Below, one piece after another: positions 9,960 through 19,888 of a DNA stretch of 64,000 bases (position 1 is the stretch's first letter; each line of letters starts with the position of its first letter). The notes beneath the pieces are model-generated. The model worked only from the letters and a program-made list of their open reading frames with translations. It searched no databases and was not told where the DNA came from. Made by a program: the position numbers and the translations under genes. Origin of the DNA: a virus (lineage: Duplodnaviria; Heunggongvirae; Uroviricota; Caudoviricetes); the IMG/VR virus record IMGVR_UViG_2563366840_000011, positions 12,067 through 76,066 of that record. One strand, written 5' to 3'.

Positions 9960-13640
<3,681 letters not shown>

Positions 13641-15427: not shown

Positions 15428-15601
15428 TCAGATTAAATTAATCTTGACATCATAGCTTTCAAGACCCGTCATTTTTTCCCGTGCGGTAAACTGAATACTG
15501 GTAACTTCTTTCCCGGTCTTTTTCTTAAGTTCAATAATTTTTTTTGTTATATATTCAGAAATATCTGCTTCTGCTTTTGTTTTTAAGTTTTCAATATTCA
15601 T
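15428..15601 (-). CDS. gnsB: GnsA/GnsB-family small protein
   Basis: Minus-strand ORF below the 60-aa track cutoff: MNIENLKTKAEADISEYITKKIIELKKKTGKEVTSIQFTAREKMTGLESYDVKINLI; Gns-family-like; alternative start one codon upstream at 15604. Confidence 0.6.
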   Translation of the reverse strand: MNIENLKTKAEADISEYITKKIIELKKKTGKEVTSIQFTAREKMTGLESYDVKINLI

Positions 15602-15772
15602 CATTTCCTCTTTTAGTCTGTTATGACTTTCCAGTTACACAGTAAGTCGATTATATGGTGCAAACGTGTAAAAGATAAGATGAAACATCGCAATAATCAA
15701 CATACGATAGTCTAAATTTTACACAAACAGACAAAGAAAATTTTCCTGAATTATCAATACAATAGCATCAAA

Positions 15773-16003
15773 TCAACTCAAGAGCCTTATTGCTGCTTCC
15801 AGAATTTCTTCTGAAGTAACATGTCGATCCGCGGCTACATAAATGACTTTATGATCTCCGGTCAGAGATGGAAACCCTGCGGCCATTACAGTAAGGTGTG
15901 TTTTTTCGCCATTTGGATATTCACGCATGATGGTGTTAACTCCAGTCATCGCTGGCACTACCACTGCAGGTTCAGAGTTAAAAAAAACTATGATTTTTTT
16001 CAT
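15773..16003 (-). CDS. Hypothetical small protein (start uncertain)
   Basis: ORF MKKIIVFFNSEPAVVVPAMTGVNTIMREYPNGEKTHLTVMAAGF...; ORF track extends to 16045, but a terminator hairpin at 16051-16069 favours the internal start. Confidence 0.4.
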   Translation of the reverse strand: MKKIIVFFNSEPAVVVPAMTGVNTIMREYPNGEKTHLTVMAAGFPSLTGDHKVIYVAADRHVTSEEILEAAIRLLS

Positions 16004-16039
16004 GATGTTACCGTAGTATGTGAGTATCCATCGAATAGA

Positions 16040-16069
16040 TACCAAGCAAAAAAGCTCCCGAAGGAGCCT
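16040..16069 (-). terminator. Rho-independent terminator downstream of cspI
   Basis: Hairpin gctcc-cgaa-ggagc at 16053-16066, followed on the minus strand by TTTTTTGC. Confidence 0.6.
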
Positions 16070-16274
16070 TCATTTTCACTTTTTTAAATCCAACGACAGA
16101 CGGCTGGCATTTAAGTATTGTGAAATATTATCAAATGTAATCATCATTGATTTACAAAAGATACATTTTGCCCCGAAAGGATTCATGTCAGAAACATCAA
16201 AAGATGATGTTCTATACTGGGAACCATGACAACACGGGCATCTAAAGTGAATATGGTTTGTAATATTGTCTACC

Positions 16275-16487
16275 TCAAAGCGCCACTACATGAACAGCGG
16301 CAGGACCTTTAGGTCCGTTCTCAATACCAAATTCAACTTCCTGATTCTCAGTTAATGTTTTGAAATCGTTGCTCTGAATTGCTGAGAAATGGACAAACAC
16401 ATCTTTGCTGCCATCTTTCGGCGTGATGAAACCAAAACCTTTTTCAGGGTTAAACCATTTCACTAAACCAGTCATTTTGTTAGACAT
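16275..16487 (-). CDS. cspI: Cold shock protein CspI-like
   Basis: 70-aa [73 protein letters not shown]; CspA-family fold, sequence as recalled for CspI; long AT-rich 5' region upstream. Confidence 0.9.
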
Positions 16488-16850
16488 AATTATTACCTTT
16501 TGAAGAAATTAGCCCTTGGGCAGAATGGTCCGAAAAAAAATATCAGAGAGAAAAACCAACAAGGAAATCTCAAGAGGTACAAATAATAAAATTATAACAA
16601 TGACTGCTTCAGATAAATTTGTAACAAACCAGAACACCATTAACGCATGATTAACCACCCATAGCAAGGATTACTTTTGTAAAGAAAAACACAGCAATGA
16701 AAGAATAGCTTTATTTATTAATAATAACGTGTCATTCTGATTAAGACCTTTTATCTTACCCTTAAGATTTCAGGAATTTTGGCTCATGGAAGAGTCCTTT
16801 TTATTTAAATTTTACATTCCGCGATGTAAATGTTCCGATTTAATATTACC

Positions 16851-18190: not shown

Positions 18191-18406
18191 TTACTCTCCT
18201 CTCGCAGCCTTACGCCTGTCTTCTTTAATCTTGAAATAAAGATTTGTCAGATACGTCAGCAGGCCAAAAACCAGGCTACCCAGCACACCGATTGCAGCCC
18301 ACTGTGACGGAGTTACTTTATCGAGTAACTGCAATGCCCAGAAACCAGCATTACCCGCCGATGTGCCATAGGCAACACCTGTTGTTAACTTATCCATTGA
18401 TTTCAT
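18191..18406 (-). CDS. essQ: Class II pinholin (phage 21 S-like) with dual-start motif
   Basis: ATG at 18406 gives [71 protein letters not shown] (71 aa), two TMDs, Met1/Met4 dual start; ORF track extends to 18481. Confidence 0.85.
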
Positions 18407-18625
18407 ATCCTCACCCCGATGTACACGGATGGTGCAATATGTTTGAAAAGATCGGAGTCTACGGGGTAGTTTTGACAGCACACGTTGTTCTCAACGGCGC
18501 TAAAAAAACATACACATTAAAAATGTGGGTAATTATTTTGAAAGAAAGTCATATATAAAATAATAATACGAGAAATGTTTTCATATTTAGTGTACTGTAT
18601 ACGGCCATTTATACAGGAAAAGCCT

Positions 18626-18796
18626 ATGTCAGAACGTAAAAACTCAAAATCACGCCGTAATTATCTCGTTAAATGTTCCTGCCCAAACTGCACCCAAGAG
18701 TCAGAACACAGTTTTTCAAGAGTACAAAAAGGTGCCCTTTTGATCTGCCCTCATTGCAACAAAGTATTCCAGACAAATCTTAAAGCTGTAGCCTGA
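18626..18796 (+). CDS. Hypothetical small zinc-ribbon protein (CxxC...CxxC)
   Basis: ATG at 18626 preceded by AGGAAAAG; MSERKNSKSRRNYLVKCSCPNCTQESEHSFSRVQKGALLICPHCNKVFQTNLKAVA; opposite strand to the late operon. Confidence 0.4.
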   Translation: MSERKNSKSRRNYLVKCSCPNCTQESEHSFSRVQKGALLICPHCNKVFQTNLKAVA

Positions 18797-18850: not shown

Positions 18851-18880
18851 ATAATAAAAAACCCGCCTGAGCGGGTTTGA
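18851..18880 (-). terminator. Rho-independent terminator downstream of cspB
   Basis: Hairpin aacccgc-ctga-gcgggtt at about 18859-18878, followed on the minus strand by TTTTTTATT. Confidence 0.65.
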
Positions 18881-19159
18881 GATTGTGGTGCTTTTTGTGG
18901 GAGTCATCCACTTACGCACTTTGTTTTGCCATGCCAGCAGTTAGCTTCTGCTGTAAAACTATTCATGCAGCAAACCTGCACTTCACCACAATGGTTAGCA
19001 TACTTTTCCTGATTAAGATTTTGCCAAATATGCTAGCCATTGTTTCATGTATTGGACCTCCTTACTTTTTATTAAAGAGATCCAATATTCACTACTCTGT
19101 CCGTATCTCTACTCAGGCATCAGCCTTCTTCGTTATCGTATACAGACGAGCGATGAATT

Positions 19160-19375
19160 TTAATCAGTAATGATGACATTTGCTGCTGCAGGACCTTTAG
19201 CACCACTCTCTATAGAGAAGGTAACCTTTTGACCTTCAAATAAGGTTCGATAATTATCATTCTGAATCGCAGAAAAATGCACAAACACATCTTTACTACC
19301 ATCAACAGGAGAAATAAAGCCGAAACCTTTATCAGCGTTAAACCATTTTACTAAACCAGTCATTTTATTTGACAT
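19160..19375 (-). CDS. cspB: Cold shock protein CspB-like
   Basis: 71-aa [74 protein letters not shown]. Confidence 0.9.
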
Positions 19376-19675
19376 TCTACATTCCTTAACTTGAGCCTTT
19401 CGGCATAAATGGTTTGCATAACAGAAACGACTTCGTACTTAATTGGAGAGACTCAAAGAAGGAATAAGTGAATAACACCTGAAATGAGAACTGCTTTAGT
19501 AAACTACTTCGTATATCGTCTGTTCTTCAAACCGACGCAATCATTAACGCATAGTTGAACATATGAAGCAATGTTTATTTTAGACATCCAGCCATCTTCA
19601 ACCCCATCAAAAAACTATAGCTTTCTTCAGGAACGTGTGTATAGTGCGCCAAGTTATCAGTATTAAGGAATTTTT

Positions 19676-19888
19676 TTGTCCCGTAAAATGACAGGAATTG
19701 TCAAAACCTTTGACGGCAAAAGCGGCAAGGGTCTTATCACCCCATCCGATGGTCGTATCGATGTCCAGCTTCATGTTTCAGCGCTCAATCTCCGCGATGC
19801 AGAAGAAATTACCACCGGATTACGCGTGGAATTTTGCCGGATAAATGGTCTGCGTGGCCCTTCAGCTGCCAATGTTTACCTTTCATGA
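19676..19888 (+). CDS. cspF: Cold shock protein homolog CspF-like
   Basis: 70-aa [73 protein letters not shown]; divergent from cspB. Confidence 0.85.

Follow-up and report, generated by a model that had tools for sequence, protein, structure and literature searches.

Lambdoid phages carry cargo ("moron") genes between the Q antiterminator gene and the lysis cassette, as the Stx phages do with stx. We describe a gene in that slot, ynfU, found in a 64,000-nucleotide stretch of a virus of the Caudoviricetes (IMG/VR record IMGVR_UViG_2563366840_000011, positions 12,067 to 76,066), all of which is referred to below as the window. Here ynfU forms part of the cargo of the Qin lambdoid prophage and lies between Q and the holin gene. 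Like moron genes such as stx, it occupies the Q-to-lysis slot and is proposed to have a promoter of its own, with at best a weak terminator, and to be expressed in the lysogen. Unlike the cargo of the Stx phages, that of Qin is an islet of cold-shock genes with no toxin, and ynfU is transcribed against the late operon.

The gene was discovered in 2019 by Ribo-RET, that is, by ribosome profiling of stalled initiation complexes (Weaver et al., 10.1101/511675). In western blots SPA-tagged YnfU was the most abundant of the small proteins that the study had newly identified, and the same authors pointed out a pair of CPXC zinc knuckles and obtained, by threading, a moderate match to the PA0128 zinc domain (10.1101/511675). 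The gene was detected independently by PIRT-Seq (PMC12350097), and a preprint lists it among genes up-regulated together with the suf and enterobactin genes (10.64898/2026.08.03.742565). Later papers on ynfU state just "possible metal binding" again, and our literature searches found no functional study of ynfU or of b4776, its locus tag.

Identity and conservation of ynfU

We are almost certain that the reading frame in the window is ynfU, a translated and selected gene for a zinc-ribbon mini-protein that is carried here as prophage cargo. Its product, MSERKNSKSRRNYLVKCSCPNCTQESEHSFSRVQKGALLICPHCNKVFQTNLKAVA (56 residues), is identical in sequence to YnfU of Escherichia coli K-12 (YP_010051186.1), and the 601 bases around the gene are 100% identical to the K-12 Qin prophage. 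Of 5426 complete E. coli genomes, 1653 contain this 601-base region, and in them RefSeq labels the exact frame "ynfU: putative zinc-binding protein YnfU". In NC_000913.3 the gene is b4776 (1640805..1640975), within "cryptic prophage Qin", with essQ on one side and cspB on the other. The protein exceeds the curated cutoffs of both Pfam PF23499 "YnfU" (107.3 bits vs 27, residues 1-49 over 49 model positions) and NCBIfam NF038384 "YnfU family zinc-binding protein" (79.4 bits vs 36), and it has the CPxC-18 residues-CPxC arrangement with S-E-H-S-F and R-V-Q-K-G between the knuckles. YnfU is the type member of these two families.

An initial annotation had described a 56-residue zinc-ribbon open reading frame (ORF) on the strand opposite to holin and cspB and between them. 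Its coordinates proved exact, as did the strand relation to essQ and cspB, and the two CxxC motifs are CPNC at residues 19-22 and CPHC at residues 41-44, with 18 residues between them. The same annotation called the ORF an orphan, which is contradicted by the RefSeq entry for ynfU / b4776, by PF23499 and NF038384, and by the published evidence of translation. The ORF is neither orphan nor new, having stood as ynfU in EcoCyc and RefSeq since 2019 with a Pfam family of its own. The value of the find as a discovery is accordingly small; it amounts to the recovery of a validated small protein from sequence alone. YnfU is, however, among the better-expressed small proteins of E. coli, and the comparative data give a concrete hypothesis about it.

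We located relatives in 86 species-representative genomes, and all counts over 80 loci given below refer to the best 80 of those 86. The ynfU frame was intact in every one of the 80 loci (51-60 residues), with ATG at the aligned start in 78. Mean entropy was 0.59, 0.32 and 1.21 bits at codon positions 1, 2 and 3 (49 gap-free codons), and the median pairwise ratio of nonsynonymous to synonymous rates (dN/dS) was 0.11. The gene is under strong purifying selection. YnfU is also encoded by 240 IMG/VR viral contigs, the best 80 at at least 98% identity. The initial annotation had suggested a conservation check, on the grounds that loss of the frame in related sequences would count against the gene; across the genomes and viral contigs the frame was kept.

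Within the family alignments P20, C22, S29, L39 and C44 are invariant, and C19, S26, H28, R32, K35, C41, P42 and F48 are present in at least 90% of aligned sequences. E27-H28, beside the first knuckle, is reported as invariant together with four conserved cysteines. Conserved basic residues are found at R4, K5, R11, K16, R32 and K35. The fifth cysteine, C17, is not kept family-wide: the distant relatives all have another residue there, as do Atlantibacter and one Citrobacter, and because of this the zinc ligands are taken to be C19, C22, C41 and C44.

Among Enterobacteriaceae, YnfU occurs in Escherichia, Shigella, Citrobacter, Klebsiella, Raoultella, Enterobacter, Kosakonia, Kluyvera, Atlantibacter, Yokenella, Phytobacter, Leclercia, Cronobacter and Mangrovibacter, and it is present but rare in Salmonella; outside that family we found it in Hafnia and Erwinia. 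Some genera have a second, divergent paralogue. A hidden Markov model (HMM) search of 1.84 billion cluster representatives returned only 42 matches at E <= 0.001. Most of these are short and YnfU-like and a few are large proteins with multiple repeats; the search revealed no connection with a larger, characterised family. Judged from these sequences, the family appears confined to Enterobacterales.

A longer, 73-residue version starting at ATG 18575, which is in the ORF list and is annotated in phage HannyBb, was rejected since the extension is not conserved, and other upstream extensions called by some annotators of YnfU homologues are likewise not conserved. Some homologues bear wrong public labels, such as "Permease, cytosine/purine..." and "aspartate carbamoyltransferase regulatory subunit", the latter probably given because of a resemblance in the zinc domain. 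Several E. coli strains (e.g. NZ_CM176584.1 and NZ_CP063515.1) have IS1 or IS200C inserted within the 600 bp spanning essQ-ynfU, which splits the match in two.

Genomic contexts and expression signals

We examined where ynfU lies across the 80 loci. Qin-type holin or lysozyme genes were near it in 7-10 of them (Escherichia, Shigella, some Citrobacter, Superficieibacter and Yokenella). In about 70 of the 80 species ynfU stands among housekeeping genes with no lysis genes close by, and the chromosomal flanks include genes for a Cys/Met pyridoxal-phosphate enzyme, an ABC transporter ATPase, a response regulator, FliF, a DeoR regulator, an aldehyde dehydrogenase, RsmF, an EAL protein and a LysR regulator. 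Defined by the larger flanking genes, there are more than 20 distinct outer contexts.

In 57 of the 80 loci a cold-shock-domain gene lies no more than 600 bp from ynfU; with about nine csp genes per genome, the chance of one lying so close to a random site is about 0.5% per locus. Most often a cspB-like gene faces ynfU convergently and a cspF-like gene comes next. Within 1.2 kb of ynfU there was a gene for a YnfN-like protein of 75 residues in 22 loci and a YmcF-like Cys-rich gene (PF23641) in 15, and at least one cold-shock-protein, YnfN-like or YmcF-like gene in 63. The association turns up again in deeply branching lineages, namely Hafnia, with a cold-shock-domain gene about 830 bp downstream of the ynfU homologue, Mangrovibacter, where a divergent pair of a cold-shock-domain gene and ymcF lies about 320 bp upstream, and Cronobacter, where such a pair is about 1.9 kb away. 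Because the outer contexts vary so much, we conclude that these small genes move or persist together. Neither the cold-shock linkage nor the mostly non-prophage distribution of ynfU appears in the papers we read, and both are reported here.

These arrangements suggest that ynfU belongs to a mostly chromosomal, movable islet shared across Enterobacterales, made up of cspB-like, cspF-like, ynfN-like and ymcF-like genes together with ynfU. The simplest reading is that ynfU sits in this small cold-shock islet and that lambdoid phages took the islet as cargo between Q and the lysis genes; Qin-like phages would then have picked it up with ynfU included.

The phages themselves are few, as 8 of 50,697 phage records encode YnfU. 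For five of them, HannyBb, Tritos, 2H10 (two accessions), PhiR42_1 and PhiR63_1, the YnfU protein identity is 98-100%, and in HannyBb and PhiR42_1, the two of these Qin-like phages that we inspected, ynfU lies between Q and the holin gene. Klebsiella phage ST13-OXA48phi12.4 has ynfU divergent from the holin gene with no csp gene alongside, and in phage PHB10 the ynfU-cspB-cspF trio adjoins the integrase gene, far from any holin gene.

To either side of the lysis genes of Qin there is cold-shock cargo, because a second cold-shock set, made up of cspI, ynfQ, ynfR, ynfN and gnsB, lies beyond the cassette (Table 1). The Qin genes cspB, cspI, cspF and ynfN are co-regulated, rising together in long-term stationary phase (PMC7406224), and YnfR is cold-induced (PMC6001520).

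Upstream of ynfU we found a conserved block that consists of an A-rich tract, RAGCWAT, a spacer of about 17 nt, GTG-TAnnGT, CC-ATT..ATCAGGA and the ATG. The portion RAGCWAT - 17 nt - GTG TAnnGT is kept across genera in some 70 different sequences, which come from more than 20 outer contexts, and beyond the block the upstream sequence differs between genera. We considered that the block might act as an RNA leader structure or thermosensor and rejected this, as RNAalifold predicted 0 pairs over a set of 70 sequences and folding of the E. coli leader gave no unusual structure (z -0.83). Since no RNA structure was found there, we read the block as a DNA-level signal, ynfU's own promoter, with a predicted transcription start near 18605 and a leader of about 20 nt. 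A promoter scan instead preferred TTGAAA-18-AATAAT at 18538-18567, which is not conserved and would place the transcription start near 18574. By inspection, none of the Zur-, Fur-, sigma32-, sigma54- or sigma28-like motifs fits the block across genera. A long thermoregulated 5' untranslated region (UTR) of the cspA type was not found upstream of ynfU, Rfam RF01766 matching only cspB.

The good ribosome-binding site that the initial annotation had attributed to the ORF is present, one base to the left of the position implied there, and CAGGA(A/G) is nearly invariant at this place across genera. It had also put a terminator hairpin downstream of the ORF. The hairpin is indeed there but is oriented for cspB and not for ynfU. 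It is stable on both strands (-15.3 kcal/mol on the plus and -12.8 kcal/mol on the minus strand, z about -4), but the minus strand, where its tail is UUUUUUAUUAU, is the only one on which the terminator scan calls it. The tail on the ynfU strand is UUUGAGAUUG, with just UUU after the hairpin. Because the U-tract is on the minus strand only, the hairpin is read as the canonical intrinsic terminator of cspB, at best weakly bidirectional for ynfU. Loci of the Enterobacter, Kluyvera and Leclercia type, as distinct from the window, have a long inverted repeat, TTGCCAAATGA - 25-30 nt - TCATTTGGCAA, some 10-70 nt past the ynfU stop, which is less perfect in Klebsiella and Raoultella and may represent a terminator, operator or repeat element.

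Since ynfU is oriented opposite to the phage late operon, late transcripts that depend on Q would be antisense to it. This orientation fits a gene that serves the lysogen and stands outside the lytic programme. Read from its own promoter against the late lysis operon, ynfU would be expressed in the lysogen.

Table 1. Features at and near ynfU (positions within the window; ranges preceded by a tilde are approximate)
Feature	Positions	Strand	Description
ynfU promoter, predicted	18570..18598	+	-35-like GAGAAA 18570-18575, 17-nt spacer, -10 TACTGT 18593-18598
Shine-Dalgarno sequence of ynfU, AGGAAAAG	18615..18622	+	AGGA core 7 nt before ATG; read from sequence
ynfU (b4776), coding sequence	18626..18796	+	56 codons plus stop; ATG 18626-18628, TGA 18794-18796; direct sequence reading and ORF list
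Hairpin AAACCCGC-CTGA-GCGGGTTT	18859..18878	both	62 nt after the ynfU stop, between convergent ynfU and cspB; G+C-rich
essQ (holin)	18191-18406	-	neighbour of ynfU
cspB	19160-19375	-	context: cold-shock-domain gene convergent with ynfU, accompanies it across genera
cspF	19676..19888	+	context: second cold-shock-domain gene of the recurrent ynfU -> <- cspB cspF -> arrangement
RF01766 (cspA thermoregulator) match	19144-19536	-	158.8 bits; cspB
Structured RNA in the cspB 3' UTR	18882-18992	-	about 110 nt, between the hairpin and cspB
ORF MKQWLAYLAKS	19013-19048	-	11 codons, just downstream of cspB
Second cold-shock set	~15430-16490	-	cspI, ynfQ, ynfR, ynfN, gnsB; beyond the lysis cassette
cspI	16275-16487	-	second cold-shock set
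ynfQ (YmcF-like)	~16079-16264	-	second cold-shock set
ynfN	15773-16045 (ORF)	-	single intact frame here; one K-12 RefSeq record marks ynfN as frameshifted

Structure and possible role of YnfU

One zinc ion held by C19/C22 and C41/C44 would fold residues 14-49 of YnfU into a zinc ribbon. AlphaFold2 run on the 27-sequence alignment gave an unusable model, with a predicted local distance difference test score (pLDDT) of 57; adding distant relatives raised it to 75 overall and 80-86 in the core. In the latter model, strands 14-18, 25-29, 38-40 and 47-49 flank the two knuckles and a short helix spans residues 30-35. The model places the knuckles at beta-hairpin turns and provides four cysteine ligands, as expected of a zinc-ribbon fold. 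Residues 1-13 form a disordered, strongly basic arm, and with 10 Lys/Arg vs 3 Glu overall the protein has a net charge of about +7.

Almost all of the top eleven Foldseek matches to the model are archaeal ribosome-bound small zinc fingers. The chain 9o17_AZ of M. acetivorans, for example, has 33% identity over 36 columns (probability 0.96, E 0.11). HVO_2753/aS21-like chains (9fhl_C, 7zhg_C, 6ydh), 9o17_AZ, L44e/eL42 and L37Ae resemble YnfU in size and in having a two-knuckle ribbon, and they share its 18-residue knuckle spacing and basic character. A profile search of the Protein Data Bank (PDB) gave Tim15/Hep1 (2e2z) at E 0.01, L44e at 0.03, 9o17_AZ at 0.19 and PA0128 at 0.5. None of these structural or profile matches is significant; they are to generic zinc ribbons, and ribosomal chains dominate the small zinc ribbons in the PDB. 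The similarities are therefore a mild lean towards RNA or ribosome binding.

Three described families come near YnfU, and membership was rejected for each. A Pfam scan of 27 family members returned, beyond PF23499, only sub-threshold zinc-ribbon models. Among these, the N-terminal zinc ribbon of PhnA/YjdM (PF08274; PA0128, PDB 2akl) is touched by 21 of the 27, with a score of 22.4 bits vs a gathering threshold of 30.8 and E 0.5 for 2akl, and YnfU is without the C-terminal domain of PhnA. The DNL finger (Tim15/Zim17/Hep1, PF05180) shares with YnfU the inter-knuckle pattern C-x2-C-x3-S-x-H-x2-S-[KR]..KG..L[IV]-CPxC, but scores 13.5 bits vs a cutoff of 27, and YnfU has neither the DNL motif nor the C-terminal extension nor a structural match to this finger. 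YmcF/YnfQ (PF23641), encoded at the cspG-cspH and cspI loci, are like YnfU in having about 60 residues and four cysteines and in adjoining csp genes; their motifs differ (CPCCHG...CIFC), and hhalign gave homology with YnfU a probability of 1.9%.

The bias towards non-prophage loci, the linkage to csp, ynfN and ymcF and the predicted, conserved promoter of its own point towards a possible part in cold, long stationary phase and RNA or ribosome binding over a phage role. We suggest, tentatively, that YnfU may be a basic, zinc-stabilised RNA- or ribosome-binding mini-protein that acts beside the Csp RNA chaperones in the cold or in long stationary phase, an assignment that we regard as possible and nearer to doubtful than to probable; that the protein binds zinc, that its target is RNA or the ribosome and that the stress is of this kind are all what we infer. 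Taken as a whole, the explanation in which ynfU is prophage cargo and its product has a zinc-stabilised RNA- or ribosome-binding role beside Csp proteins is the one that we favour, and we hold it to be plausible at somewhat less than an even chance. A bolder and more speculative version, which we consider doubtful, is that YnfU serves cold-shock-domain proteins as a dedicated partner that binds RNA or ribosomes, within a small, horizontally mobile "cold-shock islet", which Enterobacterales would shuffle chromosomally and which Qin-like phages would have captured as cargo of benefit to the lysogen; as part of the same doubtful proposal, the members of the islet would be the cspB-like and cspF-like genes, ynfU, ynfN, ymcF and a structured RNA of the cspB 3' UTR (described below).

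Several observations weigh against a cold-related, RNA- or ribosome-binding role. A cold-shock neighbour is absent in 17 of the 80 loci, including Kosakonia and two Klebsiella loci, and two of five distant lineages (Erwinia, in the flagellar region, and the second Citrobacter paralogue) are also without one. The linkage between ynfU and csp genes is partly inherited synteny among related genomes, so that 57 loci are not 57 independent events. The gene has no thermoregulated 5' UTR of the cspA type and its leader has no conserved structure. Finally, our literature searches found no experiment tying YnfU to cold, RNA or ribosomes, the zinc-knuckle motif being all that is described.

An alternative, which we judge unlikely though the likeliest of the rivals, is that YnfU binds and modulates a larger protein, in one version as a Hep1/Tim15-like (DNL-type) finger with the task of escorting an Hsp70, for instance DnaK. 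In the view of Weaver et al., the majority of new small proteins should act by binding larger ones (10.1101/511675), Tim15/Hep1 is the top profile match in the PDB, and 7 of 27 YnfU members touch zf-DNL at E <= 0.1. Every such score is, however, below the curated threshold, the zf-DNL score given above included. YnfU also has no D-N-L motif and no helix after the second knuckle, ending 12 residues past C44 in a variable tail, and besides csp, ynfN and ymcF no partner gene is consistently adjacent.

The initial annotation had hinted that small prophage zinc ribbons are often regulators or anti-defence factors, and YnfU could in principle be a prophage regulator or an anti-defence or superinfection factor that serves the phage. 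It does occupy the moron slot between Q and holin in Qin-like phages (HannyBb, Tritos, 2H10, PhiR42_1, PhiR63_1) and in the 240 IMG/VR contigs, and in ST13-OXA48phi12.4 it and the holin gene diverge, with no csp gene adjoining it. This idea is nonetheless improbable, and the hint was not borne out. No family in PADLOC-DB (5027 defence or candidate defence models) matches YnfU at E <= 1, and PHROGs gave no significant match, the best being partial, at E 0.0023, to a family of unknown function. Moreover, the phage records that encode YnfU are as few as described above, the gene stands among housekeeping genes in about 70 of 80 species with no lysis genes near, and both the purifying selection and the conserved promoter persist in non-phage contexts.

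We regard it as highly improbable that YnfU handles metal, as a zinc buffer, sensor or chaperone, and binds no macromolecule. Such a role could draw on the four conserved cysteines, on the invariant E27-H28 near the first knuckle, on an annotation that says solely "zinc-binding", and on the co-up-regulation with suf and enterobactin genes cited above. A lone structural Cys4 ribbon site is, however, typical of scaffolding and not of buffering; by inspection there is no conserved Zur- or Fur-box-like element upstream, where the sole conserved block is promoter-like; and metal-homeostasis genes do not recur beside ynfU.

The notion that the ORF is a chance or non-functional frame, with its signal coming from an antisense or non-coding transcript, could appeal to the shortness of the frame, to its place in an A+T-rich intergenic stretch of a cryptic prophage and to its being antisense to the phage late transcript, but it is refuted by the dN/dS value, the excess entropy at third positions, the 80 intact frames, the curated family matches and the experimental detection of the protein (10.1101/511675, PMC12350097).

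A structured RNA and a small ORF near cspB

Just downstream of cspB lies an 11-codon ORF, MKQWLAYLAKS, with the Shine-Dalgarno sequence TAAGGAGGT 8 nt upstream (GGAGG at about 19058-19062). This ribosome-binding site is near-perfect, and the stretch is conserved only among loci of the Escherichia/Shigella type. Given such narrow conservation, the ORF may be nothing.

Between the hairpin and cspB, on the minus strand, we found a conserved structured RNA in the 3' UTR of cspB. It has four helices, with an outer stem GUGGUG/CACCAC around three hairpins. In the alignment 90.8% of cells were paired, compared with 21-60% when partners were slid, and 19 cells were changed on both sides of a pair vs 5.8 +/- 1.9 after shuffling, a count that 0 of 500 shuffles reached. 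G-U pairs favour the minus strand by 27 to 7. Of 94 sources searched with a covariance model, R1, 27 contained the RNA, and all matches were on the cspB-sense strand. Where checked, it lies beside a cspB-like gene, and in Yokenella, where cspB is on the opposite side of ynfU, the RNA is there with it.

We also considered a small Cys-rich ORF in this same conserved stretch downstream of cspB and rejected it, as stops break the frames at places that differ between genera, so that the stretch is not coding. No Rfam family matches the RNA, and our literature searches found no functional study of it; phage records annotate hypothetical-protein coding sequences over it. The RNA may be more novel than the ynfU ORF.

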